The notes: a model not told the origin generated them from the letters alone. A stretch of 32,000 bases of DNA from Flavobacteriaceae bacterium (GCA_965224465.1 OZ245049.1:1200001-1232000), one strand, 5' to 3'. Shown: positions 3,977 to 32,000, numbered from the stretch's first letter. Program-made: numbers and translations.

Positions 3977-4061
3977 TTAATTAATATAAGAAGATAAATT
4001 AATGGAATCCCACAGACCCACGTAATTTTAATCGCTAGGTGTTACCAAACGTTTCTCCTTT

Positions 4062-4828: not shown

Positions 4829-4960
4829 TAACTTTATGTTTTTTATCATCTTACTAGTCAATAACCCCGGGGCAAGCCCACGAGGCATGAAAAAAAACCT
4901 TAATCATTTCGATGCAAGCATCGGGGAATTAAACCCACTAGTGGGATTAAAAATAGTAGT

Positions 4961-9673: not shown

Positions 9674-9688
9674 TTTTAGGCTCGCTGT

Positions 9689-9799
9689 TTATGCAGTTTC
9701 AGGTTTTCCAGAAATATACACTCTTGTAACTAATTCGTGATATTCTTTTTTATCTTTTGGATAACTGTCTTTTTCCCGCATATAAATTGTATCTGACAT
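9689..9799 (-). CDS. Possible 36-aa hydrophilic sORF ahead of the lipase gene
   Basis: Encodes MSDTIYMREKDSYPKDKKEYHELVTRVYISGKPETA. It starts 25 nt after the end of R copy B and stops 15 nt before the lipase ATG. No homolog was recognised. Confidence 0.2.
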   Translation of the reverse strand: MSDTIYMREKDSYPKDKKEYHELVTRVYISGKPETA

Positions 9800-9823
9800 A
9801 GTAATTTGGTTTTTATGGTTTGT

Positions 9824-12819: not shown

Positions 12820-12820
12820 T

Positions 12821-13672: not shown

Positions 13673-13700
13673 TTAATTGGTTTGTTTTTCTATTTTGAGT

Positions 13701-13860
13701 GGTTTTTCACATTACACACAACGTTTGGTATAAGGTTAGTAGCGGATTAATACACACGGATTTTAAGGTTAAATACGAACTTTTATAAAAGAGAAACAGC
13801 CATAAGTTAAGCACAAAACCGCTATTAATTTTATACGGTGTTCTACACAGTTTACCTATA
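13701..13860. repeat. S element copy 1 (about 160 nt conserved spacer after the immunity gene)
   Basis: Aligns with 22813..22975. On the minus strand, TGTGTAGAACACC comes right after the stop, followed by the small hairpin CCGTAT-AAAATTA-ATAGCGG and a T-run (terminator-like), and later CCGCTACTAACCTTATACCAAACGTTGTG. Confidence 0.7.
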
Positions 13861-14764
13861 TTTTTATTCGCTCTTCCTTAAAATTATCTAACAACCATTC
13901 ATTCTCATAATTATTATAACGGACTATTTTAACACCTTCAATAGACGATTTTATTTGATATAAAAAATAAATAACACCTTTATTAGTCCTATTTCCAGTA
14001 TATTTATAATGGCTTCTATCCAAATTACCTAAATACTCAAAACTATCTTCTTCTTTTATAACTTTGTTTTTTATCAAAACGCTCTTAATTTCAGTACTAA
14101 CCTTTTCTTTGTTTTGTGTTAAGTTTAATGTCTCAAAAAGTTTCTCATTATCTTTTATTTTTTTTACAGAAGTTTCATTAAAGACAACCCTTGTCAATTG
14201 ATTTTTTATAATATCAAATTTTAATATAGGAAGAAATCCACTAGATAGTTCTGTTCCACCACCACTTTCAATAAATATATCATCCTTTATAACTATTATT
14301 TCTGCTGAATATAGTGGATGCCCATAATTCATATACGAACCTGAATTAATAGAACCTCCAAAATATTCATTTTTTATAAACTTTTTATCTTCAAAAAAGG
14401 AATACGTGTTTAAATATGTTTTTCCGTGATTATAAAGCATTAAATAAATTATTTTATTCTCCAAAATAACATCACCAATAATTATTCTTTTTCTAATATC
14501 TCCGAAGTGTTCTTGTTCTTTTTCATATATGCTAGACCTTTCAAAATGGTCTATCAAAACACTATCTTTTTTACTATTATATACGTAAATATTCCACGAA
14601 GTTTTCTTTTCCTTTGTGTCGGTGTCAATAAACATTTTCACTTCTAAATTATTGAGTTTTTTAGTGTAGGCTTCCATTGTTTTTATAGTTTTATTTATTG
14701 TTTGTGCTTTACAACTCGTGAGATTGACTAGCAATGCGATTAAAAATACTATTTTTTGTATCAT
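13856..14764 (-). CDS. Lipoprotein, candidate immunity protein (module 1)
   Basis: A 302-aa ORF with signal MIQKIVFLIALLVNLTSCKAQ. It overlaps the toxin gene by 4 nt (ATGA). It is a paralog of 22970..23887. Confidence 0.7.
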   Translation of the reverse strand: MIQKIVFLIALLVNLTSCKAQTINKTIKTMEAYTKKLNNLEVKMFIDTDTKEKKTSWNIYVYNSKKDSVLIDHFERSSIYEKEQEHFGDIRKRIIIGDVILENKIIYLMLYNHGKTYLNTYSFFEDKKFIKNEYFGGSINSGSYMNYGHPLYSAEIIVIKDDIFIESGGGTELSSGFLPILKFDIIKNQLTRVVFNETSVKKIKDNEKLFETLNLTQNKEKVSTEIKSVLIKNKVIKEEDSFEYLGNLDRSHYKYTGNRTNKGVIYFLYQIKSSIEGVKIVRYNNYENEWLLDNFKEERIKI

Positions 14765-15651
14765 AATTCTTTGGTTATAGCGTTGTCTTCATAGTGATGA
14801 GTATCACTTGTAGTTTTATATAATTTATAGGCTAAATATTTATTCATATCAACGGTTAGTGTTTTATATAAAAAAGGAACTCTACCACCAGAAGCAGTCT
14901 GTAAGTCGAGATGTGCACCAGAATGTCTTACATCTAAAAAAGGTTCACCTAAAGCATCTTTTTTACAGAAAAGAACACCTGTAAGAGCGTTAGATGCATA
15001 GGTATTAAGCAGTTCTTTCGATTTCGCAAAATAATTACTGCCTTTTACACCATAAGAAGGGTCGTAGTATTTTATTGTAGTTCCTTTATTAAATGTGGCA
15101 AAAACGTGATCCCAAAAAAAGTGCATTGGTTTGTCATTTCCTTGTGCTTTATTTCCTATTGGTGGATTTTCAACAGGTGCTTTTGGGTCGTTTATCGTCC
15201 ACGTTTTTACTAAAAAAATGGAATTTGTAAATTTAGAAATACTTGGGCTTGGAACAAGATTAGCACCAACAGCGGAAGTAAAAGCAAATTGATTAACTTT
15301 TATACCTTGAGAAAGGGCAATATGTATGAAAAAAAATGTGAACTCACCACATCGAGCCTCACCATCTCGCAATAGCGTACGTAATCCTCTTGAAAAACTT
15401 CCTGTCAGAGAACTGGTATTTCTCCAATACCCCAAACCTTGACTACTCAAATCTTTGTCTAAATAAACAGTACCTTCCCTTGCCCTAGTAATTTTCAAAG
15501 GCTGAAATTCTTTAAAAAATGCATCTAATATTTGCTCTTCGTTATCTTCTGTTTTTTTAGTAGAATTACCCAGTCCTTTCGCTTGCTTACAACCTATCCA
15601 TAGCAAAGTTTCTGAAATATTATTTTTAGAGCCATTAAATGTGGCTTTCAT
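14761..15651 (-). CDS. C-terminal fragment of the toxin gene: transglutaminase/papain-like Cys-His-Asp domain (module 1, split)
   Basis: A 296-aa ORF containing GEARCGEFTFFFIHIALSQGI (Cys), HFFWDHVFATF (His) and KYYDPSYG (Asp). It is collinear with residues of about 295-586 of the intact 586-aa paralog. Confidence 0.7.
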   Translation of the reverse strand: MKATFNGSKNNISETLLWIGCKQAKGLGNSTKKTEDNEEQILDAFFKEFQPLKITRAREGTVYLDKDLSSQGLGYWRNTSSLTGSFSRGLRTLLRDGEARCGEFTFFFIHIALSQGIKVNQFAFTSAVGANLVPSPSISKFTNSIFLVKTWTINDPKAPVENPPIGNKAQGNDKPMHFFWDHVFATFNKGTTIKYYDPSYGVKGSNYFAKSKELLNTYASNALTGVLFCKKDALGEPFLDVRHSGAHLDLQTASGGRVPFLYKTLTVDMNKYLAYKLYKTTSDTHHYEDNAITKEL

Positions 15652-16529
15652 TTCATATCAACAAGTTGACTAGGTAAACGAGGGGTTTTAAATTCACTAT
15701 ACTTAGGTTCTTTCCAAGTAACATAGAGCGTATTTTTAGAAGAACCTGCTCTTGTCCAAGTTTTACCATCTTCTGAATATTCAAAAATCAGTTCAAAGTT
15801 CGTTATATGCTGTACGGTATCTTCAAACGGTTTATTATTGCTTTTAAAGGTTACTTCAAATTCTCCGCTTGTTTTTCCTTTTTCAATGTCAAAAGTATAT
15901 TTTTCATCCTTGTCCGTTATTCTTATTTTTGGTGTTTTGGTAAATGGGTTTTTAGAGGTTACTTTTAAGGTTGCCGTTAATTCTATTTTATCTGTGCTTG
16001 AAAATGTTATGGGTATGAGGTCTGGTTTTATTGTACTGTAATCATCAAGGTTTGTTCTTTTATACAACCAATGATAGTGCTTACCGCCATCTTCGAGTAT
16101 ATAGAATTTTTTGTAATCGCTAAAATCTTTTACGTCATCGCTACATATATCATATTTTGTATTAAAAACTACTTTTGTCAGTACTAAAGTGGCTTTTGGT
16201 GCTGCGGCTTCTCCGTAGGTTTTTATTCCTGTAATGATTTTAGAGGTCTTTTTCCCTTGTTGTTTTTTAGATGCTTCAAGTTCAATAGTATTGTCAGTTA
16301 TTTTTTTGTGTCTAACAAGTTTTTTGCTCATCTTTTCTGTGATGGCATTATCTCTAATATTATTTTCTTCTTCCCAAAGTGTTTTAAGTTTATCTTTTAG
16401 GTCAGTTATATAGTTTTCTAAATCTAGACCAAAAAGTTTTTTTCTGTTTACAGATGGTTTGGTATTTTCGTCCATTTTGTCCGAACTTCCAAATAGGCTC
16501 GTCCAAAAGTTTGATTTTTCTTTGCTCAT
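15648..16529 (-). CDS. N-terminal fragment of the toxin gene (module 1, split)
   Basis: A 293-aa ORF about 90 percent identical to the N-terminal half of the 586-aa paralog. It ends in the duplicated TTCAT TTCAT (15647..15656), which creates the stop and the overlapping ATG of the next ORF. Confidence 0.7.
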   Translation of the reverse strand: MSKEKSNFWTSLFGSSDKMDENTKPSVNRKKLFGLDLENYITDLKDKLKTLWEEENNIRDNAITEKMSKKLVRHKKITDNTIELEASKKQQGKKTSKIITGIKTYGEAAAPKATLVLTKVVFNTKYDICSDDVKDFSDYKKFYILEDGGKHYHWLYKRTNLDDYSTIKPDLIPITFSSTDKIELTATLKVTSKNPFTKTPKIRITDKDEKYTFDIEKGKTSGEFEVTFKSNNKPFEDTVQHITNFELIFEYSEDGKTWTRAGSSKNTLYVTWKEPKYSEFKTPRLPSQLVDMK

Positions 16530-16879
16530 TGTCCTGAATTTAAAAATTGAACTTTACCTCCTAATACACAGTTAATGGTAGATTTGTCTATTAGGGCATT
16601 TTTTCCTTCAATGAGCATATCTTTTTTAAAACCTACCCATTTTAAAAGTGAGATACTCGCTTTACAAGGTTTTTGCGTAATAGAACAAACGCCAAAATCA
16701 AAAGTATTTAGAATTGGGTTTTTGTCAATAGTGGAACAAGAATAAACACCATTGAATTTTAATACCTTTTTACTTGCTTTTATTTGGCAAGGTGTAGTTC
16801 CTTTATCACAAACCATCATTGCACCGTCTTTGATGTATTCAAAAGTTCCGCCATCTTCTGGCTGTATTAGTACTCCCAT
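16526..16879 (-). CDS. DUF4280 PAAR-like protein (module 1)
   Basis: A 117-aa ORF with the pattern YIKDGAMMVCDKGTTPCQIK...FDFGVCSITQKPC...INCVLGGKVQFLNSGQ. This matches the DUF4280 layout (GA.L.C..G..P, PFG.C, C..GG.I....GQ). It overlaps the next gene by 4 nt. Confidence 0.8.
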   Translation of the reverse strand: MGVLIQPEDGGTFEYIKDGAMMVCDKGTTPCQIKASKKVLKFNGVYSCSTIDKNPILNTFDFGVCSITQKPCKASISLLKWVGFKKDMLIEGKNALIDKSTINCVLGGKVQFLNSGQ

Positions 16880-16926
16880 ATTTTATCTTTTTTTTACCGT
16901 TACATTCCTTTGTCCTAATTGTGTAG

Positions 16927-17617
16927 AACACCTCTATATCCACAATAGCAACCCTAAAGTTGACGTTATTTCCGCAATACCTACAAGCACTACAGAGGCT
17001 GTTAAATTTATAGTTTAAAGGTAGTTAATAATTTAAATTACCAGTATATAACTGGCGTATTTATTAACAAAAGTTTACTGTAAAGTGTTACATGCATACT
17101 TTGTTGTATTTGCAGTACTTGTAGGGCTTTAATTGGTACTAATACCTTAGGGAACGGTGTGTTTTTTTGCTGTATGATTTATTTTAACAGTATTATTACT
17201 TCTAAAAAGAGGAATACTTGGTGTTTTTTTACGCTTAAAAAGTCTTCGTATTCAAACAATCGTTTTAACCGTTTAAAACGGTTATTTTAAGGACAAGAAT
17301 AAAAATTAAGTCTTCTTTTAAAAAAAATATTGCCGTCAGGTACTAATAACAGAATAAAAAAACAAACATAGCCCCGTAAAGGGAAACGCATGCCAAAATA
17401 CTGCTGACCAATACTTATCCGTATCTAAAAACAGTAAAAACATATCCCACAAAAGAGCGTGAGAGAAAATGACCTAAAAACAGGTTATATCTGATAAGGT
17501 CTTTGTTGATAGCCTCTTAATTAAATCGCGCAACCCCCATAGTATCATCTTTTGAGCCGGTATAGTCAACAGGATGTTCATGCTGGGCGCTACACACCGC
17601 ACGAACACTTAGTTATT
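16927..17617. repeat. R module copy C (full length, 691 bp)
   Basis: Collinear with copies B and D. Its stop-proximal end supplies the last codons (AAT AAC TAA) of the PanE-like gene. Its other end overlaps the 13-bp inverted repeat at 16920..16932. Confidence 0.9.
17474..17581 (-). CDS. Conserved 35-codon sORF inside the R module (copy C)
   Basis: Encodes MNILLTIPAQKMILWGLRDLIKRLSTKTLSDITCF. Compared with copy B, the first 29 codons show 5 synonymous and 2 non-synonymous differences. Confidence 0.3.
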   Translation of the reverse strand: MNILLTIPAQKMILWGLRDLIKRLSTKTLSDITCF

Positions 17618-18950: not shown

Positions 18951-20636
18951 TTATTGATCGAGGTTTAAATTTTGTGGAAATAGCTCACTTAATTTTTGAG
19001 CATTGTAATCAGGGATTATATCCAGTATTTTTTTCATCCATTTATAGGGGTTTACTTGGTGTTTTTTACAAGTCCCAAAAAAGGAATAGAACATCGCTGC
19101 ATTTTTTGCAGCATCATGGCTACCTGCAAATAAATAATTTTTACGTCCAATAGCTAATGTTCTGATAGATCCTTCTACTAGGTTATTATCTAGTTCTAAA
19201 GTACCGTCATACAGGTAGGCTTTTAAGTAGTCCCATCGTTTTAATGTATAAGTAATTGCTTTTCCTAGTGGACTTTTCGGTAAGCTTCCTTGGGTGTTAT
19301 GGATCAACCATTTTATAAATGTATCCATTATTGGTTGTGCTTTATCTAGGCGATAAGCATGCCGTTGCTCAGGAGTAAATTCCTGTTTTTTACAATGTCG
19401 CTCAATGGCATATAATTGTTGAATGAGTACCATCGCATGACTCGCTTTTACTTTGTCATAGTCTAGTGCTTTCTCAAAATAACGACGTGCATGTGCCATA
19501 CACCCTACTAAAGTGACATCTTTTTTATGTGCAAATTCATCATATACAGCGTAGCCATCTGTTTGTAAATACCCTTTAAAGTTTTTAAGCATTTCTCTAG
19601 GTCCATGTTTAGATCTAGAGGGACGATAATCAAACAATACCATTTTTTGTATGGGTGAATAGTACACCCAATGATATCCAGTATGAGTTTTTCCTTTTTT
19701 CTGTTTGTCTAGCACTGGAATAGTTGATTCATCGGCCTGTACATATCCTTGTGACAGCACCGTGTTTTTCATAGCCTGATACAGCGGCTTAAGTAAGTGT
19801 CCTAAGCTGTTTTGCCATCCATTTATTGTAGATGAACTTATAGAGATTCCTTCTCGTTTAAAACGTTCTATCTGTCGATAATACGGTAAGTGATCTAAGA
19901 ATTTATCAATCAATAGCTGTGCTAGCAGGCTGTTTGATGCTACAGATTTTTCAATAGCAAAACTTGGTAAATCAGCCATAATAACGGTCTTAATACCTAA
20001 AGGGTTTCCATTGTCAATCAATGTGTCTTGTACTTTCTTTTTTAAGGCGTATTTTGGTCTGACATATCGTTTTATGTATAGCTTTGTGGGTACAAGTTCT
20101 AATTTATCTGTAATTTCTTCACCTATTTTTATTCGGTTCTCTATAGTCTCTTTAGGCTCTAAATTAATAATTTCAACAGGTAAATGACTGGGGAGATTTA
20201 AACTTCCAATCGTTCTTTTTTTAGCCTTTTTACGTTGATATGTAATGTTTACAGGAGCTTCTTCTTCCTGGGGCATCTCTTTTAAAACTTCGAAAGGGAG
20301 TTGCATTTGAAAAGGGTTATTAGCCATTATAAAACGCTCACGTTTTGTCCCAAAAATCATACGACGTAATTGCTCTAATTGAAATTGTCCATATCCGTAT
20401 TTTGTCTCTAATTCTTTATATTGAGCTTCTAGGATAGCCTTTTGTAAAGTAACGTCTTTTGTCTTTATAGTAAGTAACTCATTCTTTGCGCTAAGAGAAC
20501 TTGTCTTTGTATTAAGTAACTCATTCTTTGAGCTAAGAGAATTTGTCTTTTTGATAAGTAAATCTGACTTAGAATTAGCCTCCTGTAATAGGGCTATAAG
20601 TGCTTTTTTTGATAGCTGTTCTAAGTCTTTTTCCAT
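18951..20636 (-). CDS. IS66-family transposase (TnpC)
   Basis: A 561-aa ORF with an N-terminal coiled-coil or leucine-zipper-like repeat and IS66-type core motifs (ADESTIPVL, GYHWVY, CMAHARRYF). Confidence 0.85.
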   Translation of the reverse strand: MEKDLEQLSKKALIALLQEANSKSDLLIKKTNSLSSKNELLNTKTSSLSAKNELLTIKTKDVTLQKAILEAQYKELETKYGYGQFQLEQLRRMIFGTKRERFIMANNPFQMQLPFEVLKEMPQEEEAPVNITYQRKKAKKRTIGSLNLPSHLPVEIINLEPKETIENRIKIGEEITDKLELVPTKLYIKRYVRPKYALKKKVQDTLIDNGNPLGIKTVIMADLPSFAIEKSVASNSLLAQLLIDKFLDHLPYYRQIERFKREGISISSSTINGWQNSLGHLLKPLYQAMKNTVLSQGYVQADESTIPVLDKQKKGKTHTGYHWVYYSPIQKMVLFDYRPSRSKHGPREMLKNFKGYLQTDGYAVYDEFAHKKDVTLVGCMAHARRYFEKALDYDKVKASHAMVLIQQLYAIERHCKKQEFTPEQRHAYRLDKAQPIMDTFIKWLIHNTQGSLPKSPLGKAITYTLKRWDYLKAYLYDGTLELDNNLVEGSIRTLAIGRKNYLFAGSHDAAKNAAMFYSFFGTCKKHQVNPYKWMKKILDIIPDYNAQKLSELFPQNLNLDQ

Positions 20637-20704
20637 ACATTAAATATACGAAAAATATACATGAACAGCCTGGTTTTATTAGGTTTTTTACCTGTAAAAA
20701 GACA

Positions 20705-21046
20705 TTAATAACGTTTCCTTTGTTGGATGTTTTTTATAGACAGTCCATCAAGAAGCATCACCATTTGGCTGTATTTCATTTGTATACTTCCTTTCAGATT
20801 ATCATACACCGGAAGTTCAAAAGTACCTCGTTCCAATCGTTTATAATACAGTACAAATCCACCTGCTTGCCAATGCAATAGTTTTATTTTGTTTCGAGGT
20901 TTATTTATGAAGATAAAAACAGCTCCATTACTAGGATCCTCTTCTAAATTATTACGGATAACACCTGACAAACCATTAAATCCTTTACGCATATCTGTGG
21001 GTTCTAGGTACAGATGAAAATCAAGTTCACTTGAAAGATTTAGCAT
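20705..21046 (-). CDS. tnpB: IS66 accessory protein TnpB
   Basis: A 113-aa ORF containing TDMRKGFNGLSGVI...IKLLHWQAGGFVLYYKRLERGTFELP, the hallmark IS66 Orf2 signature. Confidence 0.85.
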   Translation of the reverse strand: MLNLSSELDFHLYLEPTDMRKGFNGLSGVIRNNLEEDPSNGAVFIFINKPRNKIKLLHWQAGGFVLYYKRLERGTFELPVYDNLKGSIQMKYSQMVMLLDGLSIKNIQQRKRY

Positions 21047-21047
21047 A

Positions 21048-21356
21048 TTACAAATGAATTAAATTTTGTAAATCGATAAGTGTAATCTCTTTGTTAATGA
21101 CCAAATTTACACCTGTTGGATACTCGATTTTAAAACTATCTAAAATAGAATTTCTGCTGTTTTCAATAGGAGCATCAATAAGTTCAACCTTTGAAAATCC
21201 ACTGGCATTTTTGGAGGTCAATTTCTTATTCCAGTACCTAAATTTACAAAGTGTAATTTTATGACTTTTACAATAATCTTCCAAGGTTAAATCACTCAAC
21301 TTCCAATCGGAAACAACAGCTGTCATATAGGCTCGTTTTTCTTCGTTTTTTCTCAT
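21048..21356 (-). CDS. IS66 accessory protein TnpA (HTH)
   Basis: A 102-aa ORF that is the first gene of the IS66 operon and ends 1 nt before tnpB. Confidence 0.7.
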   Translation of the reverse strand: MRKNEEKRAYMTAVVSDWKLSDLTLEDYCKSHKITLCKFRYWNKKLTSKNASGFSKVELIDAPIENSRNSILDSFKIEYPTGVNLVINKEITLIDLQNLIHL

Positions 21357-21414
21357 GCGTCAAAAATAGAAGCTATTTTTCCACTAAAAAATATGGGGAT
21401 GGTCGGACGGATAC

Positions 21415-21726
21415 AAATGAACAGTCGGTTATGGTTTGATAGATTTCTTTTGTTGGCTGTTTTTTAAAAAAAGATAAAAAGTCATTTACAAAACAAGGAG
21501 CAGAATAAATATTTGTTGTAACTATTTCGTTATCTTCATTTAGAATATATGAGCGTACATATCCTTTCTCTAAAAAATATGTTTTTGTACTAATAGTGTC
21601 TTTGTCAAGTAGCGTAGTATTCTTATCTAATTTGAAATCACAGAACGTTTCCGTAATTTTCATTACTGTCTCCTTTTGGATAGGAAACAAAGAATGGAAA
21701 TAATTATTAAGTATGGATTTGTCCAT
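21415..21726 (-). pseudogene. Crp/Fnr-family regulator, N-terminal (cNMP-binding-like) fragment
   Basis: Encodes MDKSILNNYFHSLFPIQKETV...YFLEKGYVRSYILNEDNEIVTTNIY...TITDCSF, and then runs into the IS66 end. The track ORF 21373..21726 includes 14 IS-derived codons. Confidence 0.8.
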
Positions 21727-21903
21727 TAGTCTGTTTTTCAGTTACGCACAACGTTACGTATATGCTTAGTGCTGGTTAAAAATACAATAATTTTCTGTTA
21801 AGCATTTAGCCAAATTTTTTCTTTTCCAATTTTAACGCAAAATTGAAAATTTTGCGGACTTCATAAATATGCCTAAACTCGGGTTAAACACTGACTTTAA
21901 GCA

Positions 21904-22353
21904 TTAAGTATATACACTGTTGTGCGCAGGCTTTCCACGTTCTAGTTCATTTTCTATTCTTTTTTCGAGTTCTTTCTGTTTAAATTCAAACCAATTTTGT
22001 CTAAAATCAGAATGGTCAACTTTATTCTTAAAATTCTGAAATGGTTTTTTGTTTGCTAAAACATTTTCCAATTCCGACTTTAGATTTTTGTCAGACAACT
22101 GCTCAACAAAAAGTTCCATAATTTTAAACGACTCAAAGTTTTCTAAAGTCTCAAATTTTATAAAATCCGCTTTATGTTTTTCCACTTTTTCTAAACTTTC
22201 ATTAAAAGCTTCTTTAAAATCTTCCTCGTCCGAAAATTGTGAAAAACTCGGAATTGAAACAATTTCGTCAGTTTTAGAATTGTAATAGCAGTCAAATCCA
22301 GAATCTAATTCTTGAGCTATTTCCTTTATTAATTCTGACTGTTTTCTTATCAT
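21904..22353 (-). CDS. UPF0158-like small protein (orphan immunity-type gene, tentative)
   Basis: A 149-aa acidic protein. The C-terminal KKPFQNFKNKVDHSDFRQNWFEFKQKELEKRI resembles the UPF0158 G.G.FRRFKD....W..F signature. It is ATGA-coupled to the upstream gene. Confidence 0.5.
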   Translation of the reverse strand: MIRKQSELIKEIAQELDSGFDCYYNSKTDEIVSIPSFSQFSDEEDFKEAFNESLEKVEKHKADFIKFETLENFESFKIMELFVEQLSDKNLKSELENVLANKKPFQNFKNKVDHSDFRQNWFEFKQKELEKRIENELERGKPAHNSVYT

Positions 22354-22802
22354 TAGATTGCTCTTATTGGATATTGTTGAACTTCTTTTTCTAATTCTTT
22401 TGCAATTAGTTTTAATTCGTCATTATTGAAAACACAATCTACAAAATACTCTTTTTCATCAACAGCATTTTGTGGTCGTGACTCCAAGTCAAATATTATT
22501 CTGATATGCTTTTTTTCTGTACTTTTTTTTGTCAGTTCAAATTCCAAATTCGGTTCCATAAAAACAAGTGAATCAGAATCAGTTTCTATGTTATTCGAGA
22601 GTTTCTCAAACCACTCGATAATTTCTTTTAAATCTCCAACCAAAAGAGATGGGTCAACTGTCTGCCAATTTCCACAATCACTTTTTACTTTTAAATAAAT
22701 CAATAACCAATTTGAGTCATATTCGCAATCCGTTATTTCAGGAAACTGATAATTCGTTATCTTAAATTCAACAGTTTGTTCATTAATTCCTTTAAATATC
22801 AT
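22353..22802 (-). CDS. WapI-like immunity-type small protein (tentative)
   Basis: A 149-aa cytoplasmic protein. The pattern FKITNYQFPE...YDSNWLLIYLKV...W...DPSLLVGDLKEIIEWF resembles WapI-family immunity proteins as I remember them. Confidence 0.45.
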   Translation of the reverse strand: MIFKGINEQTVEFKITNYQFPEITDCEYDSNWLLIYLKVKSDCGNWQTVDPSLLVGDLKEIIEWFEKLSNNIETDSDSLVFMEPNLEFELTKKSTEKKHIRIIFDLESRPQNAVDEKEYFVDCVFNNDELKLIAKELEKEVQQYPIRAI

Positions 22803-22812
22803 TCCATTACGA

Positions 22813-22975
22813 TGGTTTTTTCAGCTTGCGCACAACGGTTTGTATAAGGTTAGTAGCGGATTTAAATACAAAAAGTTATTGGTTAAGCACAAATTTATAA
22901 AAAGGAAACAGACTTTAAATTTAGCACAAAAACCGGTATTAATTTTATACCGTGTTCTACACAGTTTATCTACAT
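22813..22975. repeat. S element copy 2
   Basis: See 13701..13860. Its hairpin is CGGTAT-AAAATTA-ATACCG, with a compensatory G-C/C-G swap relative to copy 1. Confidence 0.7.
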
Positions 22976-23887
22976 TTTTATTCGTTCTTCCTTGAAACCA
23001 TCTAATAACCATTCGTTTTCATAATTATCATAACGGACTATTTTAACACCTTCAATAGACGATTTTATTTGATAGAAAAAATATGTAGTACCTCCTTTAA
23101 CTTTATTAATCTGTTCTAAATCAATCTTAGCACTAAAATCATATAAAAAATCTAGGTATTTATAATTAGCACTCTCTTTTAATAATTTATTTTCAATTAA
23201 TACTTTCTTAATTTCAGTACTTATCTTTTCTTTGTGTTTAATTAAATTTAATGTTTCAAAAAGATGTTTATCATCTTTTCTTTTTTTTACAGATGTATCA
23301 TTAAAAATAATTTTTTTTAATTGATTAATTGATTTATTAAAATTTAAAAATTGCGCAACCATCATTGATTGTACACCGCCTCTTCCATAAATAAAAATTT
23401 CATCTCCTGTTAAAATTTTTATTTCTGCGACATATGATGGATGTCCGAAGTTTAGATATGAACCCATACCAATAGCCCCTCCAAAATATTCTTTTTTTAT
23501 AAATTTCTTATCTTCAAAGAATGAATATGTTTTTAAATATGTTTTTCCGTGATTATAAAGCATTATATAAATTGTCTTATCTTCTAAAATAGCGTCACCA
23601 ATAATTATTCTTTTTCTAATATCTCCAAAATGTTCTTGTTCTTTTTCATATATCCCAGACCTTTCAAAATGGTCTATCAAAACACTATCCTGTTTACTGT
23701 TGAATACATAAATATTCCAAGAGGTCTTTCTTTCTTTCGTGTCGGTATCAATAAACATTTTCACTTTTAATTTGTTTATTTCTTTAGTATAGGCTTCCAT
23801 TGTATTTATTGTTTTATTTGTTGTCTGTGCTTTACAATTAGTAAAGTTTACTAGCAATGCGATTAAAAATAATATTTTTTGTATCAT
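22970..23887 (-). CDS. Lipoprotein, candidate immunity protein (module 2)
   Basis: A 305-aa ORF with signal MIQKILFLIALLVNFTNCKAQ and a 4-nt overlap with the toxin gene. Confidence 0.7.
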   Translation of the reverse strand: MIQKILFLIALLVNFTNCKAQTTNKTINTMEAYTKEINKLKVKMFIDTDTKERKTSWNIYVFNSKQDSVLIDHFERSGIYEKEQEHFGDIRKRIIIGDAILEDKTIYIMLYNHGKTYLKTYSFFEDKKFIKKEYFGGAIGMGSYLNFGHPSYVAEIKILTGDEIFIYGRGGVQSMMVAQFLNFNKSINQLKKIIFNDTSVKKRKDDKHLFETLNLIKHKEKISTEIKKVLIENKLLKESANYKYLDFLYDFSAKIDLEQINKVKGGTTYFFYQIKSSIEGVKIVRYDNYENEWLLDGFKEERIKM

Positions 23888-25644
23888 AATTCTTTGATTA
23901 TAGCATTGTTTTCAGAATAAAACATTCTACTTGTAGTTTTATATAGTTTAAAGGCTAAATATTTATTCATATCAAGGGTTAATGTTTTATATAAAAAAGG
24001 AACTCTACCTCCAGAAGCAGTTTGCAAGTTGAGATGTACTCCTGAATACCGTGCGTCTAAAAAAGGCTCACCTAAAGTATCTTTTTTACAAAAAAGAACA
24101 CCTGTAAGAGCATTAGATGCGTAGGTGTTAAGTAATTCTTTAGGTTTAGTAAAATAATTACTACCTTTTATACCGTAAGAAGGGTCGTAGTATTTTATTG
24201 TAGTTCCTTTGTTGAATGTGGCAAAAACGTGATCCCAAAAAAAGTGCATAGGCTTGTCATTTCCTTGTGCTTTATTTCCTGTTGGGGGATTTTCAACAGG
24301 TGCTTTCGGGTCATTTATCGTCCACGTTTTTACTAAAAAAATGGAATTAGTAAATTTCGAAATACTTGGACTTGGAACAAGATTAGCACCAACAGCGGAA
24401 GTAAAAGTAAATTTATTGACTTCAATACCTTGTGAAAGGGCAATATGGATGAAAAAAGAAGTGAATTCACCACAACGAGCTTCGCCGTCACGTATTAAGG
24501 TTCGTAAATACCTTGAGAAACTTCCTGTCAGAGAACTGGTATTTCTCCAATACCCTAAACCTTCGCTAGTTAAATCTTTGTCTAAGTAAGCAGTTCCTTC
24601 CCTTGCCCTAGTAATTTTTAAAGGTTCAAATTCTCTAAAAATAGCATCTAATATTTGCTCTTCGTTATCTTCTGTTTTTTTACTATCGCTACCTAAGCCT
24701 TTGGCTTGCTTGCAACCTATCCAAAGCAAAGTTTCAGTAATATTTTTTTTACTATTAAATGATGCTTTGATTTGTAGTGTATCATTTTCATTAATTTCTT
24801 TTTCAAAATCACTATATTTAGGTTCTTTCCAAGTAACATAGAGAGTGTTTTTAGAGGAACCCGCCTTTGTCCAAGTTTTTCCATCTTCAGAGTATTCAAA
24901 AAGAAGTTCAAAATTTGTTATATATTGTATGGTATCTTCATAGGGTTTATTATTACTTTTAAAGGTTACTTCAAATTCTCCGCTTGTTTTTCCTTTTTCA
25001 ATGTCAAAAGTATATTTTTTGTCCTTGTCCGTTACTCTTATTTTTGGTGCTTTGGTAAATGGATTTTTAGAGGTTACTTTTAAGGTTGCTGTCAATTTTA
25101 TTTTATCGGTACTTGCAAATGTTATAGGTATGAGGTCGGGTTTTATTGTGCTGTAATCGTCAGGGTTTGTTCTTTTAGACAACCAATGATAGTGCTTACC
25201 GCCATCTTCGAGTATATAGAATTTTTTGTAATCACTAAAATCTTTTACGTCATCACTACATATATCGTATTTTGTATCAAAAATTACTTTTGTCAGTACT
25301 AAAGTAGCTTTTGGAGCAGCGGCTTCTCCGTAGGTTTTTATTCCTGTAATGATTTTAGAAGTCTTTTTATCTTGTTGCTTTTTAGCCCCTTCAAGTTCAA
25401 TGGTGTTACCCGTTATTTTTTTGTGACGAACAAGTTTTTTACTCATTTTTTCGGTAATGGCATTTTCTCTAATGTTGTTTTCTTCCTCCCAAAGGGCTTT
25501 AAGTTCGTTTTTTAGGTCGGTTATATAGTTTTCCAAATCCAATCCAAAAAGTTCGTTTCTGTTTGTTGATGGATTATTGCTTTCGTCTATTTTGTCCGCA
25601 CTGCTAAATAGGTTTATCCAAAAGTTTGATTTTTCTTTACTCAT
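23884..25644 (-). CDS. Intact 586-aa toxin candidate: N-terminal delivery region plus C-terminal transglutaminase/papain-like Cys-His-Asp domain
   Basis: Has no signal peptide. The motifs GEARCGEFTSFFIHIALSQGI, HFFWDHVFATF and KYYDPSYG give a C...H...D order and spacing like the Transglut_core fold. It sits between a PAAR-like gene and a lipoprotein gene, with ATGA overlaps on both sides. Confidence 0.75.
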   Translation of the reverse strand: MSKEKSNFWINLFSSADKIDESNNPSTNRNELFGLDLENYITDLKNELKALWEEENNIRENAITEKMSKKLVRHKKITGNTIELEGAKKQQDKKTSKIITGIKTYGEAAAPKATLVLTKVIFDTKYDICSDDVKDFSDYKKFYILEDGGKHYHWLSKRTNPDDYSTIKPDLIPITFASTDKIKLTATLKVTSKNPFTKAPKIRVTDKDKKYTFDIEKGKTSGEFEVTFKSNNKPYEDTIQYITNFELLFEYSEDGKTWTKAGSSKNTLYVTWKEPKYSDFEKEINENDTLQIKASFNSKKNITETLLWIGCKQAKGLGSDSKKTEDNEEQILDAIFREFEPLKITRAREGTAYLDKDLTSEGLGYWRNTSSLTGSFSRYLRTLIRDGEARCGEFTSFFIHIALSQGIEVNKFTFTSAVGANLVPSPSISKFTNSIFLVKTWTINDPKAPVENPPTGNKAQGNDKPMHFFWDHVFATFNKGTTIKYYDPSYGIKGSNYFTKPKELLNTYASNALTGVLFCKKDTLGEPFLDARYSGVHLNLQTASGGRVPFLYKTLTLDMNKYLAFKLYKTTSRMFYSENNAIIKEL

Positions 25645-25994
25645 TGTCCTGAATTTAAAAATTGAACTTTACCTCCTAATGCACAGTTAATCGTAGATTT
25701 GTTGATTAGGGCATTTTTTCCTTCGATGAGCATATCTTTTTTAAAATCTATCCATTTTAAAAGTGAGATACTTGCTTTGCAAGGTTTTTGCGTAATAGAA
25801 CAAACGCCAAAATCAAAAGTATTTAGAATTGGATTTTTATCAATAGTGGAACAAGAATAAACACCATTAAATTTTAATACCTTTTTACGTGCTTTTATTT
25901 GGCAAGGTGTAGTTCCTTTATCGCAAACCATTATTGCACCGTCTTTGATATATTCAAAAGTTCCGCCATCTTCGGGCTGTATTAGTACTCCCAT
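25641..25994 (-). CDS. DUF4280 PAAR-like protein (module 2)
   Basis: A 117-aa ORF that differs from 16526..16879 at about 6 residues. Confidence 0.8.
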   Translation of the reverse strand: MGVLIQPEDGGTFEYIKDGAIMVCDKGTTPCQIKARKKVLKFNGVYSCSTIDKNPILNTFDFGVCSITQKPCKASISLLKWIDFKKDMLIEGKNALINKSTINCALGGKVQFLNSGQ

Positions 25995-26100
25995 ATTTTA
26001 TCTTTTTTCACCGTTATACTTCGTTGTTCTGAATTGTGTAGAACGGTGAAATATGACACGTGGTGCAGATTTAAAGAAATGAACTCTAAATGAACTCTGA

Positions 26101-26159
26101 GCCAAACAGTTGATTTTGTTTTATCTTATTTTTCACCAAAACAAAATCAACTGTTTGGC
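26101..26159. repeat. Perfect 22-bp inverted repeat (possible terminator or insulator between hamB and module 2)
   Basis: GCCAAACAGTTGATTTTGTTTT, a 15-nt loop, then AAAACAAAATCAACTGTTTGGC. It is flanked by three AATGAACTC direct repeats and a second hairpin GGACTGA..TCAGTCC. Confidence 0.6.
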
Positions 26160-26236
26160 GGTGTCTATTAATTGGACTGAACATAAAATGAACTCAGTCC
26201 GCACTATGTGATATATTTGGTGTTAGGTTTTCGTGT

Positions 26237-28537
26237 TTATTTTTTAGTAATTATTTTATCAATTTTCTCAAATGTTTTAAGTTCGTAATTATCAAACTTT
26301 AATTTTATACTATCTCTAGAATCAATATTTTCATAATAATCTACAATATTGGACGGAACACCATAATCACTTGCTATTTTGCCTTCATCTGTCAATGCAT
26401 TATGTTCAAATTTCATAAGTAATTTATCAATACCCAAGACATCGTCAATTAATATTTTTTCGGTAATAGAAATATAATACTTATACATAATATTAAACAC
26501 TCCAAGGTATTTAACAGTTTGATACTTTAATGTATTATAAACAAATTTTGATGTTAGTTGTATTGCTTTATCAATTGACTCACCCTTAGCTAAGTAATAA
26601 TTAACAGACCCTTTAAAGCCACCTTTCAAATAATAGTATATTAAACTAGTTAAAGTTGAATAATCACCTTTAGAGCCTGTATGTTCAATTAAAAATCTAA
26701 GATTCTTATTAGTTATTATTGGTAATATAGTACGTAAAATAATTTGAAATCCATCATAATCTATATTTAATCTGAAGTTTATAATTTTAATTAATTTCTT
26801 TATTTTTCTAATATCAAAGTTTGATAAATCAAAAATATTATCATAAACCGTAATCTTATCTAACCTACTAATAACTTTATACTGAGATAAAATCTCATCA
26901 GGAATACCTCTTTTAAATTGTTCTTTTATAACATTTTTTTTTCTGCTTTGATCAACATCAGACAAGTATTTATTATTAGTATAAAATAAATCTATTTCAT
27001 CTTTAGGCGCATTTATATCATAGTTTTTATGTTTTAAAGCTTCATCTTCTCCATTAATTATATTAATAAATGAATTACTCAAATCAATAACTCGTCCACT
27101 AAAATGATGACCAAAACGACCTGCTCTACCAGCAATATTTTTTGCATCAAATTTTTTAAGATCCTTATTTCCCTTTTTACTGTGCATAACGATCAAATTT
27201 TTTGCCGATGTATTTACACCTTCAGTAATAGTAGTCGTTGATATTAAGATTTTAATATATCCCTTATTAAATAAATTTATTATTTCTTTTTGAATATATT
27301 TAGGAATTAGTCCATGATGTATACCAATTCCACTTTTTAGTGCGCGTACTAAAATCCAATTATCTGTGAAATTTAAAGATATATGATTAATTAGTTCATC
27401 ATACTCGTTTGTAATATGGTTATTTAATATACCTGATTTAATAATCACTTCAGCATACTTTTCTACTCCACCGTTCTTGCCTCTATTAGAACAATAAACA
27501 ATTATATTTTGTGAAATATTTAATATTGCATCAATAGTTTCTATTAATGTTTTTGATTTATTTTTTGATTTTGTATAACTAATATTTAACTGGTTATCCT
27601 CTGGATATGTTTTATTTTGCCTAACACCTAAATACGTTTTATTTACAATTTCATATTTATTATAATTTATTAACGAAATTTTATTATCTTTTAAAAAATA
27701 ATTAAATGATGGATTATAATTGTAGGAATCTGGTATTGAAAACTCCATATATGGACCTGCAAATAACATATCTGAATTTTGAGATAGAGCATAAAATATA
27801 GCTAAACGATACGCAACATCTCGTTCATTTTCTCTTAATTGTTCATCAATTAAGTAGTCATTATCTATTTTGTATACTTCATCTACAAATATAAAATCAA
27901 ATTTTATATTATAATCTGATTTTTCAGTAAAAGACAAATATCTTTCAGGAGTATAAATAAAAATATTATTCTTTCCGAGTTTTTTAACTTCACTCAGAGT
28001 ATGTATTGAATAATTTTCACGAAACATTTCATAATTTAATCCTGAAAGTAATTTATCCATATTTTCTGAAAGAAGTGCTATTGTAGGAAAAATCAACACA
28101 ATATTTGAATATTTCATTTTCTTAATAACTTCAAATACAATATGAGTTTTACCAAATGAAGTACTTGCGGATAGAAAAAATCTATTCATTTTAGAAAAAT
28201 TAAATTTGTCCAATATTTCCTTTTGGTATTTATGAAGCATACTATTTTCGTCTGTATGTAAAACACTTTCGTAATAAAGTGAAGAGAATGTTCTTAAATC
28301 AAATGAATTAATATTTGGCTTTTGATCAAATTTATCCAGAATATTATAGAAATGTGGAATACCTGAAATATTCGCAATATATCTAAGAAACTTGAAATCA
28401 TTCTGAGTTAATACTTCATTTTTAATAAGATCAAAATAAGAACATACTAAACTAATAAACTTAAAATCTATAAGCTTTCCTTTTTTAAATAGGTTTAGTG
28501 CAATTATTAAATTTGTGGTTTCCTTGATTCTATCCAT
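26237..28537 (-). CDS. hamB: SF2 helicase, Hachiman HamB-type
   Basis: A 766-aa ORF. Motif I is SASTSFGKTHI, motif II is FIFVDEVYK (DExx), and motif VI is NIAGRAGRFG. It overlaps the end of the upstream 298-aa gene by 31 nt. Confidence 0.7.
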   Translation of the reverse strand: MDRIKETTNLIIALNLFKKGKLIDFKFISLVCSYFDLIKNEVLTQNDFKFLRYIANISGIPHFYNILDKFDQKPNINSFDLRTFSSLYYESVLHTDENSMLHKYQKEILDKFNFSKMNRFFLSASTSFGKTHIVFEVIKKMKYSNIVLIFPTIALLSENMDKLLSGLNYEMFRENYSIHTLSEVKKLGKNNIFIYTPERYLSFTEKSDYNIKFDFIFVDEVYKIDNDYLIDEQLRENERDVAYRLAIFYALSQNSDMLFAGPYMEFSIPDSYNYNPSFNYFLKDNKISLINYNKYEIVNKTYLGVRQNKTYPEDNQLNISYTKSKNKSKTLIETIDAILNISQNIIVYCSNRGKNGGVEKYAEVIIKSGILNNHITNEYDELINHISLNFTDNWILVRALKSGIGIHHGLIPKYIQKEIINLFNKGYIKILISTTTITEGVNTSAKNLIVMHSKKGNKDLKKFDAKNIAGRAGRFGHHFSGRVIDLSNSFINIINGEDEALKHKNYDINAPKDEIDLFYTNNKYLSDVDQSRKKNVIKEQFKRGIPDEILSQYKVISRLDKITVYDNIFDLSNFDIRKIKKLIKIINFRLNIDYDGFQIILRTILPIITNKNLRFLIEHTGSKGDYSTLTSLIYYYLKGGFKGSVNYYLAKGESIDKAIQLTSKFVYNTLKYQTVKYLGVFNIMYKYYISITEKILIDDVLGIDKLLMKFEHNALTDEGKIASDYGVPSNIVDYYENIDSRDSIKLKFDNYELKTFEKIDKIITKK

Positions 28538-29403
28538 TTTATAACAGTTGTTTTTATGTCTCTTACTTTATCTACAGGTAATAGTATAAAATAGATTGAA
28601 TATGGTATTGACAATTCAAATTGAGTAGCAGTATATTTTTCATTAATATGTTTGATTACAGAATCTATACTATAATCATAACCTCGTTTATGTTTGTCAT
28701 AAAGTATGATAATTGGATATATTAATTTTATATTATACTTTTTAACATATTCCATTATATTTACCATTGGGTTTTTTTCCCATTCATTTATTATTGTTTC
28801 TACTTTTGTTCCTGTAATATTAAAGCTATTCTTGAAATTTGTAATAGCAAGAAGATTTTTCGATAAATATTTATCCGAAATAGCTTTATCAATATTATCT
28901 AACGCACTATCAACACCAGATTTAAACGTGTTTCTGAATTTAACTTCACCAAACCATAACTCTGTTATTCCTTTATTTTCAATTAAATGATAAGAATCAT
29001 ACCCTTTAGTTTCGGACGACTCCAATGGGTTATAAAAATAGCCCCTAGAAATAACAGCTTTTGCGTTAAATTTTGCATAAAGCATACAGTATAATATAGT
29101 TTCACCGTGAAAACCATAACTTATTTTATATTTTTCCTTTGCATATTCATTATACTTCATTTTTGTAAGTAAAGCGATAGTATGCATATTCATCATATCC
29201 TTATCTTCTAAATCGAATTCATTAAAAGAATAATCAACGATAGAATTATAAATAATAGTTGCAAGAGTATCATTACTTACTGATAAAAAACATTTATCAT
29301 TTTCTGTAGAGAATATTGATTTATCAATTTTTAGTTGAGGATTAGGTAAATCATATTTGTAAACAATAGACTTGGATATTAGATCTAATAATTCATTTCT
29401 CAT
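28507..29403 (-). CDS. hamA: HamA-type (DUF1837-like) nuclease partner of the helicase
   Basis: A 298-aa ORF with a PD-(D/E)xK-like signature GYDSYHL...ELWFGEVKF. Its position and size immediately upstream of the SF2 helicase match the Hachiman architecture. Confidence 0.6.
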   Translation of the reverse strand: MRNELLDLISKSIVYKYDLPNPQLKIDKSIFSTENDKCFLSVSNDTLATIIYNSIVDYSFNEFDLEDKDMMNMHTIALLTKMKYNEYAKEKYKISYGFHGETILYCMLYAKFNAKAVISRGYFYNPLESSETKGYDSYHLIENKGITELWFGEVKFRNTFKSGVDSALDNIDKAISDKYLSKNLLAITNFKNSFNITGTKVETIINEWEKNPMVNIMEYVKKYNIKLIYPIIILYDKHKRGYDYSIDSVIKHINEKYTATQFELSIPYSIYFILLPVDKVRDIKTTVIKWIESRKPQI

Positions 29404-31101: not shown

Positions 31102-31380
31102 CTATATCACTAAGTCTTCATATTCTTGGGTAGTAGAATTTTCAATAAATATTTTCCTATCTTTAGATTTCTTAAAATTCAAAGAGCCGTGTAATTTCCA
31201 CAATTTTGTCCAACTACTTTTTACGTATACACCATTAAAATCATCGACTGAATCAGGCACAAAAAAGGGTTTAACATTTCCAATGAAACCAGAAAAATAT
31301 GGTAGATCATTTTTTTCAAGTGCCATTTCTATCAGCAAATCATAATTAAGAGAAAAGATTTCCTTCTCATGCTCTTGGTT
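31102..31380 (-). pseudogene. SIR2-like (SIR2_2-type) gene remnant
   Basis: EKEIFSLNYDLLIEMAL and TKLWKLHGSLN match the TTNYD..LE and KLHGS motifs of defence-type SIR2 domains. The N-terminus is replaced by the IS30 end, so the first 8 codons of the track ORF derive from the IS inverted repeat. The frame stops prematurely after EDLVI. Confidence 0.55.
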
Positions 31381-31384
31381 CTTA

Positions 31385-32000
31385 AATTCAAGTAGTAAAT
31401 GCAACTTCTTAGATTTGAGAGTTTCTAAGGTTTATTTTTCAAAACAGAAAGAGAGTCACCTCTCCTTCATGTTTTGATGGAATAGTTACCTTACGCCCTC
31501 AAGTCTCTGAAAAAGAAGTAGTATGGCACATTTAACCAAAGAACAAAGATACACAATTACCTGTATGTTATCACAGGGGTATTCTAAGTCCAAAATAGCC
31601 TTGGCTATAGGGAAACATAAAAGCACTATAAGTAGAGAATGCAAACGTAATTGCGATGCTCGTAGCGGCTCCTATGAATACGAATTAGCACATAGAAAGT
31701 GGAAGGATAGACATAAGAAAAAGCGAAAGCACATTAGGTTTACTGAGAAGATAAGAAGCGAGGTTGAAAAGCTGTTACGTGATGATTATAGTCCAGAACA
31801 AGTGGTTGGAATACTTACTAAGCAAGGAAAAGAAGTTGTTTCAGTAGAACGTATTTATCAGCATATCTGGCAAGATAAGAAGCATAAAGGCACACTCTAT
31901 ACTCATTTAAGAAGACAAGGAAGGAAGTACAGGAAACGAGGGGCATTCAAGGACTCACGTGGTATTATTAAAGATCGAATTAGTATTGAAAAACGACCAG
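31385..32000 (+). mobile_element. Second, diverged IS30-family element (left part; runs off the window)
   Basis: The left end AATTCAAGTAGTAAATGCAACTTCTT and the leader (ttttcaaaacagaaa...) are collinear with the IS30 at 10618. Confidence 0.7.
31523..32000 (+). CDS. IS30-family transposase (5' partial in window)
   Basis: The frame from the ATG at 31523 is open to the window end. It encodes MAHLTKEQRYTITCMLSQGYSKSKIALAIGKHKSTISRECKRN...RRQGRKYRKRGAFKDSRGIIKDRISIEKRP, collinear with the 10755..11711 product. It is absent from the ORF track because it has no stop in the window. Confidence 0.8.
   Translation, partial: MAHLTKEQRYTITCMLSQGYSKSKIALAIGKHKSTISRECKRNCDARSGSYEYELAHRKWKDRHKKKRKHIRFTEKIRSEVEKLLRDDYSPEQVVGILTKQGKEVVSVERIYQHIWQDKKHKGTLYTHLRRQGRKYRKRGAFKDSRGIIKDRISIEKRP

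Follow-up and report, generated by a model that had tools for sequence, protein, structure and literature searches.

A DUF4280-coupled, transglutaminase-like candidate effector and its exported immunity-type partner in a flavobacterial genome

What is the function of an operon that joins a spike-tip protein to a large predicted enzyme and an exported partner, and how would such an enzyme leave the cell? This question is raised by a 32,000-nucleotide stretch of the genome of a Flavobacteriaceae bacterium (GCA_965224465.1 OZ245049.1:1200001-1232000; hereafter the window), where a three-gene cassette at 25994..22970 on the minus strand (cassette A) encodes a DUF4280 PAAR-like protein (gene 1), a candidate effector enzyme (gene 2), and an exported lipoprotein-like protein (gene 3), and where a diverged second cassette (cassette B) lies at 16879..13856. 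A first-pass annotation of the window had read the unit as an undescribed toxin with its immunity protein, delivered on a PAAR-like spike by a contractile system encoded elsewhere. Here, we followed up that reading with homologue and profile searches, structure prediction, and comparison of related loci, and find it likely that the cassette is a self-contained tip-cargo-antidote module serving a type VI secretion system of the Bacteroidota type (subtype iii; T6SSiii) that is encoded elsewhere in the genome.

The layout of cassette A is simple and compact. The listing of open reading frames (ORFs) gives gene 1 (25641..25994; 117 amino acids, aa), gene 2 (23884..25644; 586 aa), and gene 3 (22970..23887; 305 aa) in that order, and both junctions, read directly from the sequence, are ATGA overlaps (25641..25644 between genes 1 and 2; 23884..23887 between genes 2 and 3), which confirms the gene boundaries and couplings given by the first-pass annotation. 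On the same strand, a terminator-like hairpin with a T-run (22934..22952) sits 18 nt past the gene-3 stop codon and is conserved in cassette B, and the three coupled genes with a terminator-like hairpin of their own support an operon. A scan for sigma-70 promoters was uninformative, yielding fewer sites than in shuffled sequence.

The first gene ties the cassette to spike-tip proteins. Gene 1 matches Pfam PF14107 (DUF4280) over model positions 3-109 of 109 at E 4e-18 (66.5 bits against a gathering cutoff of 26.3), which bears out its initial PAAR-like assignment, and it carries six cysteines (positions 24, 31, 48, 65, 72, and 104); four conserved metal-binding cysteines have been described in DUF4280 PAAR-like proteins (PMC5014421). 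PADLOC and NCBIfam returned no match for it. A word-indexed homologue search with the effector returned 58 homologues, including two in Cellulophaga algicola DSM 14237 (75-76% identity) and others in an uncultured Cellulophaga, Cytophaga, Bacteroidales and Flavobacterium metagenome-assembled genomes, Aquimarina, and Treponema. The window proteins are 75-83% identical to Cellulophaga proteins, which suggests a Cellulophaga-like marine source. DUF4280 is fused to the N-terminus of the enzyme in at least 17 of these 58 homologues, and gene 1 shares ~50% identity with residues 1-116 of the closest fused proteins (Treponema, metagenomes). Where not fused, it is encoded by a coupled gene in every locus examined except one (L016), where the 1.1 kb directly upstream of the enzyme contains no called gene. 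Within the fused proteins, DUF4280 (residues 1-116) runs into a beta-sandwich at about residue 133, and a helical hairpin that precedes the sandwich in the window effector is missing. From this pattern of fission and fusion we argue that tip and enzyme associate physically, and, because the hairpin is missing where DUF4280 is covalently fused, it may serve as a non-covalent docking element for the separate DUF4280 protein. The fused and separate forms also provide natural “Rosetta-stone” evidence on the pairing of cargo with a PAAR-like tip.

What, then, is the cargo? The 586-aa effector has no hydrophobic N-terminus, consistent with the absence of a signal peptide noted at first reading, and has no match in Pfam, NCBIfam, PADLOC, or the PDB sequences, nor did its family profile match anything in the PDB. 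Two weak candidates were set aside, namely nanobody matches from the full-protein sequence search of the PDB, which were confined to the beta-sandwich and judged spurious, and a Pfam F5_F8_type_C match at E 0.41. An AlphaFold2 model of the full-length protein, built with 48 homologues as alignment, was predicted with confidence (predicted local distance difference test score, pLDDT, 90.1; predicted template-modelling score 0.80) and comprises a disordered segment (residues 1-30), the helical hairpin (35-93, at 25366..25542; pLDDT 83-92), a linker (94-108), an immunoglobulin-like beta-sandwich (115-271, at 24832..25302), and an alpha/beta core (300-586, at 23887..24747), all on the minus strand. 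Foldseek searches against the PDB aligned ~580 columns of this model with factor XIII and with TG3 at probabilities of 0.85-0.97 and E-values no better than 2e-4; in both proteins, a beta-sandwich precedes the core in the same order and the sandwich of factor XIII co-aligned with that of the effector, while the beta-sandwich alone matched RhoGDI and UNC119 (probability 0.9-1.0). The C-terminal domain, modelled separately (pLDDT 93.7), matched vasohibins, Rad4/XPC, PNGase, TG2, BDI_1141, TglA, and LapG, all of them transglutaminase-fold proteins, at E 2e-3 to 0.2 and template-modelling (TM) scores of ~0.3.

Catalytic residues support this predicted fold. The motifs ARCGEFT, WDHVFA, and YDPSYG supply Cys391 (24472..24474), His472 (24229..24231), and Asp487 (24184..24186), as read from the minus strand, and in the model the cysteine opens a helix (391-403), the histidine lies in a strand (471-479), and the aspartate ends another (482-487). 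All three residues are invariant in all four alignments, including 49 close and 50 distant relatives. A profile that includes the distant relatives matched mouse and yeast PNGase at the catalytic GRCGEW motif (E 0.0038), and the Pfam model Transglut_core (PF01841) gave sub-threshold matches in 12 of the 50 distant relatives (best E 4.6e-4; e.g., P0203 with 20.1 bits against a cutoff of 23), in one of the 49 close relatives (E 0.07), and none to the window effector at E<=1. No NLPC_P60 or CHAP match was found in the effector or the 49 relatives. The transglutaminase/papain-like fold and Cys-His-Asp triad put forward at first pass are thus supported by two models, Foldseek, and conservation, and we conclude that the effector is probably a divergent member of the transglutaminase-like superfamily, outside the reach of current models; its activity could be that of a protease, amidase, deamidase, or cross-linker. 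Its N-terminal 290 residues, which the first-pass annotation did not recognize, have no database match, but residues 115-271 form a beta-sandwich found together with the core in most of the wider family (see below), and this domain is a companion of the core, ordered as in animal transglutaminases, and not a separate delivery domain.

The third gene points to where the enzyme might act. Gene 3 begins MIQKILFLIALLVNFTNC followed by KAQ, and its signal peptide ends, as read by eye, in LVNFTNC in cassette A (with an atypical Asn at -1) and in LVNLTSC in cassette B, while the signals of relatives, read likewise, end in ISLSS-C, VLAS-C, or LFSS-C, or else in …MAQ or …SAQ without a cysteine, which indicates signal peptidase I for the latter. 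The protein has no match in Pfam, NCBIfam, PADLOC, or the PDB, and its family profile found nothing in the PDB or Pfam. A hidden Markov model of the Cellulophaga-type gene 3 found a homologue directly downstream of the enzyme in every locus except Aquimarina. The family lies downstream in at least 10 loci from two phyla (Cellulophaga, Cytophaga, Bacteroidales, Flavobacterium, Treponema, and metagenomes), with tandem extra copies (two in Treponema; three in metagenome locus L014, which has a further one upstream) as well as orphans (L016, L011, and L004, the last adjoining a truncated C-terminal fragment of the enzyme). The gene-3 member of every locus has a signal peptide; an apparent lack of one in Treponema and L014, which would have favoured a cytoplasmic target, was rejected when upstream in-frame reading gave MKRMYFLIFIILNNFIMNAQ… and MKNRIILFCIILNSLIMSAQ…, so the gene calls there were too short. 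Gene 3 is also the fastest-evolving gene of the cassette (69-71% amino-acid identity between the two copies against 85-95% for the others; dN 0.18 against 0.07 for the enzyme). Fast divergence, tandem copies, and orphan copies are habits of immunity genes, and together with the ATGA coupling they suggest that gene 3 encodes the cognate immunity protein, whose export implies a periplasmic or envelope site of toxin action. The earlier proposal of an exported immunity protein therefore gains support from a family that follows the enzyme in both Bacteroidota and Treponema. The suggestion of an undescribed family is supported as well: neither toxin nor immunity protein is covered by a Pfam or NCBIfam model or has a sequence relative in the PDB, and a literature search on transglutaminase-type type VI secretion system (T6SS) effectors with periplasmic immunity found no description of the toxin family, the immunity family, or the two-domain architecture.

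Both cassettes have evolved under constraint, though not in the same form. The second copy that the first-pass annotation placed at 13856..16879 is real, with 85.4% nucleotide identity between 26044..22813 and 16929..13700, but the annotation overlooked a split of the toxin gene in this copy, where an indel-rich stretch in the inter-domain linker shifts the frame and leaves two ORFs. An ATGA stop-start overlap at 15648..15651, new in the linker of this copy, would restart translation there, to judge from the sequence. Cassette B thus consists of four minus-strand genes: a DUF4280 gene (16526..16879) whose product is 95% identical to that of cassette A; gene 2a (15648..16529), for a 293-aa N-terminal half with hairpin and beta-sandwich; gene 2b (14761..15651), for a 296-aa transglutaminase-like core with RCGEF, WDHVF, and YDPSYG intact; and gene 3 (13856..14764), for a 302-aa exported immunity-type protein (…LVNLTSC, then KAQ). 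Both halves of the enzyme are in frame and retain the family and catalytic motifs. The ratio of nonsynonymous to synonymous substitution rates (dN/dS) between the cassettes is 0.13 for DUF4280, 0.17 and 0.14 for the N- and C-terminal halves, and 0.25 for gene 3, at dS of 0.17-0.72, and these low values in all genes indicate purifying selection on both cassettes for most of their separate history.

Alternatively, cassette B, and possibly cassette A as well, could be a decaying remnant, in which the split toxin would be a frameshifted pseudogene in an island ridden with insertion sequences (ISs), kept only for its immunity gene. The broken toxin ORF invites this view, as do the IS66 and IS30-like elements and truncated genes close by, and elsewhere the L004 locus shows a truncated C-terminal fragment beside an intact immunity gene, while nearly all relatives hold beta-sandwich and core on a single chain. 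Decay sits poorly with the 293 and 296 codons that are still open in the two halves despite a dS of ~0.5, with intact catalytic motifs, and with a break that recreates an ATGA overlap precisely in the linker between two domains that are modelled as folding autonomously. The dN/dS of the halves (0.17 and 0.14) is as low as that of intact regions, with the caveat that pairwise dN/dS is blind to recent inactivation. On balance, we regard the pseudogene explanation, for cassette B only, as unlikely, yet as one to be taken seriously.

How the cassette might be delivered is suggested by the company its relatives keep. A related-locus search with a 13-sequence alignment returned five genomes, the window genome not among them. 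In Aquimarina sp. MMG016 (L001), a VgrG gene is followed by a 287-aa gene and then by a DUF4280-enzyme fusion, adjoined by a parallel module of VgrG, a 285-aa gene, and DUF4280-RHS; the 287- and 285-aa proteins between VgrG and the DUF4280 effector are candidate adaptors. The paralogous flanking genes of these modules lie at 9145..10008, 13012..14028, 16133..16990, and 21763..22845, and the 338- and 360-aa signal-less proteins that follow the two effectors are 39% identical although the toxins differ. C. algicola has two cassettes as well, and upstream of them is a TssD (Hcp; PF17642) gene that an IS has disrupted. With the C. algicola TssD fragments as query, a search found at least five TssD (PF17642) proteins (P0092, P0094, P0096, P0100, and P0103) on the contig inferred to be the source of the window, and, judging by these matches, the genome very probably holds the T6SSiii tube protein in several paralogues. 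The five are 222-231 aa long against roughly 155 aa for the short form, are nearly identical over the first ~140 residues, and diverge in C-terminal extensions of 80-90 aa, and so look like Hcp proteins with variable C-terminal cargo or adaptor domains. The first-pass annotation had placed the delivery machine elsewhere in the genome, and the VgrG and TssD neighbours of relatives and the inferred TssD paralogues are in favour of that placement.

From these observations we can sketch how the module may work. The 117-aa DUF4280 protein would cap the VgrG spike, and the signal-less effector would ride on this cap, probably via its N-terminal helical hairpin. Firing of the T6SSiii would then place the effector in the periplasm or envelope of a neighbouring diderm cell, where the beta-sandwich and core would act with Cys391, His472, and Asp487 on an envelope component; most likely, it would hydrolyse an amide or peptide bond, or carry out a transfer at one, in a component such as peptidoglycan or an envelope protein. 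The co-translated gene-3 product, exported to the periplasm (lipoprotein-like in Cellulophaga), would presumably block the enzyme in sibling cells. A peptidoglycan or envelope amide-bond target is a tentative proposal that we hold at somewhat less than even confidence, and a peptidoglycan-amidase activity is a guess.

Several observations weigh against this T6SSiii-delivered module. As the first-pass annotation had also reported, no secretion-system genes lie nearby, since the ORFs of at least 100 aa across the 32 kb gave no Pfam match to secretion genes and the six-frame translation no match to the TssD profile, and neither window cassette has an adaptor gene of the Ate3 (see below) or Aquimarina 287-aa type beside it. 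Most relatives' cassettes are isolated among housekeeping or defence genes: the DUF4280-enzyme-gene 3 triplets of Cellulophaga (L009), Cytophaga (L010), Bacteroidales (L011), Flavobacteriaceae (L012), Flavobacterium (L017), and a metagenome (L018) have no T6SS genes within 10 kb, and orphan cassettes therefore seem to be the norm. The evidence for a complete T6SSiii in the window genome consists of the TssD matches, the Aquimarina homologue is not followed by the gene-3 family, the Transglut_core gathering score is never reached by the effector or its sampled relatives, and the structural similarity is modest (TM ~0.3; E 2e-4 to 0.2). Lastly, fused homologues occur in Treponema, and we know of no T6SS described in that genus or in other spirochaetes. 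In Treponema genomes and a related metagenome contig (L007, Treponema sp. CP051200.1, 10001..13721; L014 and L015), the DUF4280-fused toxin is accompanied by two or three immunity genes in tandem, and secretion genes were not found near these fused loci.

These Treponema fusions are the main argument that the cassette could be cargo of another DUF4280-using machine, either an extracellular contractile injection system (eCIS) or an undescribed route, and the lack of linkage to T6SS genes in the window and in most relatives would fit this as well. In addition, eCIS particles are also tipped by PAAR-family proteins (PMC8651086). Where partners are visible, however, they are VgrG (Aquimarina) or TssD PF17642 (C. 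algicola), no eCIS genes were seen in any locus, and the window genome itself appears to hold at least five TssD genes, so that we consider another machine improbable.

A different question is whether the enzyme is a toxin at all, and here its wider family is informative. An exhaustive profile search found relatives in 2,595 representative clusters at E<=1e-3 (1,571 at E<=1e-10), and, among the best 150 of the 2,595 clusters, the matches of distant relatives span profile positions ~140-500, i.e., the sandwich-plus-core unit. Beyond the DUF4280-linked branch, these best 150 include proteins of up to 2,135 aa, several of which carry Big_9, cadherin-like, CBM96, PA14, glucodextranase-B, dockerin, Calx-beta, LysM, or malectin domains, and a hydrophobic, signal-like N-terminus is present in 37 of 74 sampled distant relatives with an initial Met, against 3 of 55 in the DUF4280-linked branch. 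The toxin thus appears to have been recruited from a large family of secreted or surface enzymes with the transglutaminase fold that no database annotates, and such kinship would suit a substrate outside the cytoplasm. Given the carbohydrate-binding modules in relatives and the PNGase-like motif, a reasonable guess would be a glycopeptide, for instance peptidoglycan. Once known, the substrate of this family would put a function to thousands of proteins, and it might expose a new envelope target for antibacterial enzymes.

The same kinship also allows the reading that the enzyme is a transglutaminase-like protease or cross-linker with a housekeeping or host-directed role, for which gene 3 would provide the periplasmic substrate or regulator. 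The wider family includes surface proteins with adhesin and carbohydrate-binding modules, which are not toxins, and LapG-type proteases, which have dedicated periplasmic partners, are represented among the Foldseek matches by LapG. The DUF4280-linked branch, however, has lost the signal peptide (3/55 versus 37/74) and is fused or coupled to a spike-tip domain, gene 3 occurs in the tandem and orphan copies typical of immunity genes, and other toxin or immunity genes adjoin (RHS, Imm44, WapI-like), so that this non-toxin explanation seems to us more improbable still than delivery by another machine.

Defence, immunity, and mobile-element genes surround the cassettes. Just downstream of cassette A, and like it on the minus strand, lie two small genes, one encoding a WapI-like immunity protein (22353..22802; PF24716, E 3e-34), the other a UPF0158 protein (21904..22353; PF03682, E 6.5e-9), that overlap by one base and have no toxin gene beside them; both are probably orphan immunity genes outside the operon. 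Directly upstream of cassette A is a complete Hachiman system (26237..29403, minus strand), comprising HamA (28507..29403; PADLOC E 2e-126) and the HamB helicase (26237..28537; 1067.6 bits), with a long perfect hairpin (CCAAACAGTTGATTTTGTTTT…AAAACAAAATCAACTGTTTGG) at ~26100..26160 between this system and the cassette. Directly downstream of cassette B is the two-gene candidate defence system PDC-M37 (11734..13672, minus strand), consisting of PDC-M37A (283 aa, E 2e-113) and PDC-M37B (a 361-aa ClpB/ClpV-D2-like AAA+ ATPase, E 2e-142). An apparently truncated gene for a 100-aa SIR2-like fragment (31102..31404, minus strand) matches the middle of PADLOC SIR2 defence proteins. Between cassettes A and B lie a PanE gene, the orphan immunity genes, and a complete minus-strand IS66 (accessory ORF, TnpB, and 561-aa DDE transposase; 18951..21726 including an abutting gene), the abutting gene being a truncated, Crp-like one for a cyclic-nucleotide (cNMP)-binding protein (21373..21726, minus strand), while a second transposase (HTH_38 + rve) is encoded at 10707..11711 on the plus strand. 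Large surface-protein genes and a short exosortase-like ORF adjoin at 262..7318 on the minus strand; among the products are one of 935 aa that has a weak VIT domain and one of 785 aa that combines FG-GAP repeats with a Peptidase_M14-like N-terminus, and the exosortase (EpsH)-like ORF is 177 aa long. With HamA/HamB, PDC-M37A/B, and the SIR2 fragment nearby, and with the L014 locus likewise placed among AAA_21/RloB, SIR2, and AbiJ-like genes, one might take the cassette for an anti-phage module of a cell-suicide enzyme and its inhibitor, but this is extremely unlikely, given that the cassette genes have no PADLOC match, that an inhibitor sent out of the cytoplasm would be unable to restrain an enzyme acting there, that DUF4280 is a spike-tip fold, and that conflict islands commonly mix defence and interbacterial toxin genes.

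The cassettes are also bracketed by an inverted repeat. On the minus strand, its left arm, the 13-mer GTTCTACACAATT, lies upstream of cassette A at 26032..26044, ~33-45 nt upstream of the DUF4280 start codon, and its right arm, TGTGTAGAAC (as AAC-TGTGTAGAAC), lies at ~22949..22963, just past the gene-3 stop; in cassette B the same arms are at 16917..16929 and ~13835..13849. The 13-mer is identical in five Cellulophaga cassettes despite diverged flanks, and the 9-mer core has no further occurrence within the window. The repeat is also seen at positions 9609, 12683, and 18678 of locus L003 and 641 and 3721 of L009. The repeat could be an operator, a cassette boundary, or an element for RNA pairing between 5' and 3' ends.

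Taken jointly, these strands permit a more ambitious reading, which we find unlikely as a whole, in which the effector would be the first one sighted of a large, entirely unannotated clade of ~2,600 clusters of “animal-architecture” transglutaminase-like enzymes, with an envelope chemistry new to T6SS effectors, a spike route in spirochaetes, and an inverted repeat that marks a mobile or co-regulated unit. If it were true, the candidate chemistries would be PNGase-like cleavage of glycan-peptide amides or cross-linking or deamidation of envelope proteins, and the DUF4280-fused form in Treponema would point to spike-based delivery in spirochaetes, for which no such route is known.

Compared with known systems, one of the closest counterparts of the proposed module is found in the same phylum, Bacteroidota. 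In the GA3 T6SSiii of Bacteroides fragilis (Bte3/Bti3/Pte3/Ate3), the periplasm-acting effector Bte3 needs the DUF4280 tip Pte3 and the adaptor Ate3 and is countered by a lipoprotein immunity protein (PMC13402684). Like our cassette, this module dedicates a separate DUF4280 tip to one signal-less effector with N-terminal beta-sandwich domain(s), and its immunity protein Bti3 has a lipoprotein-type signal, which the gene-3 signal resembles (PMC13402684). The two differ in that Bte3 ends in an open beta-barrel without a catalytic triad, whereas the window effector ends in a Cys-His-Asp transglutaminase-like core, and in that the Bte3 module lies inside its T6SS cluster and requires its adaptor, whereas the window cassettes are orphans with no adjacent adaptor gene (PMC13402684). 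For gene 1, the Flavobacterium johnsoniae protein Fjoh_3275/Fte1 and Francisella IglG belong to the same Pfam family, DUF4280, and have conserved cysteines, although IglG has a Francisella-specific N-terminal extension, while gene 1 is the bare 117-aa domain (PMC5014421).

For the enzyme, delivered toxins of the transglutaminase fold have been described before, such as the Tox-TGase domains that polymorphic toxins carry (Zhang et al. 2012, PMC3482391) and EAT14, an eCIS-associated toxin found with DUF4157 (PMC11297309). Compared by description, both share with the effector a transglutaminase-fold Cys-His-Asp domain, but they are carried by type III secretion systems, RTX, or eCIS, are mainly regarded as aimed at hosts or as acting in the cytoplasm, and usually come without an exported immunity protein (PMC3482391, PMC11297309). 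The amidase effectors Tae1-4 (NlpC/P60-CHAP) with their Tai proteins, to which the first-pass annotation had likened the effector, have a papain-like Cys-His fold, T6SS delivery, and periplasmic immunity, whereas the effector has no NLPC_P60/CHAP match and is a much larger, two-domain protein from another branch of the fold. With the Transglut_core superfamily it shares its predicted fold, the cysteine at a helix N-terminus, and the order of His and Asp on neighbouring strands; with PNGase, its family shares the G-R-C-G-E-W/F motif; and with animal transglutaminases, it shares the order of beta-sandwich and core but lacks their C-terminal barrels. The effectors of T6SSiii in environmental Bacteroidota are barely charted. 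The type of system seen here, tip-effector-immunity, is known, while its toxin family, its immunity family, and its two-domain “animal-like” architecture are unannotated, and the cassette defines toxin and immunity families, named in no database, that extend from marine flavobacteria to gut Bacteroidales and Treponema.

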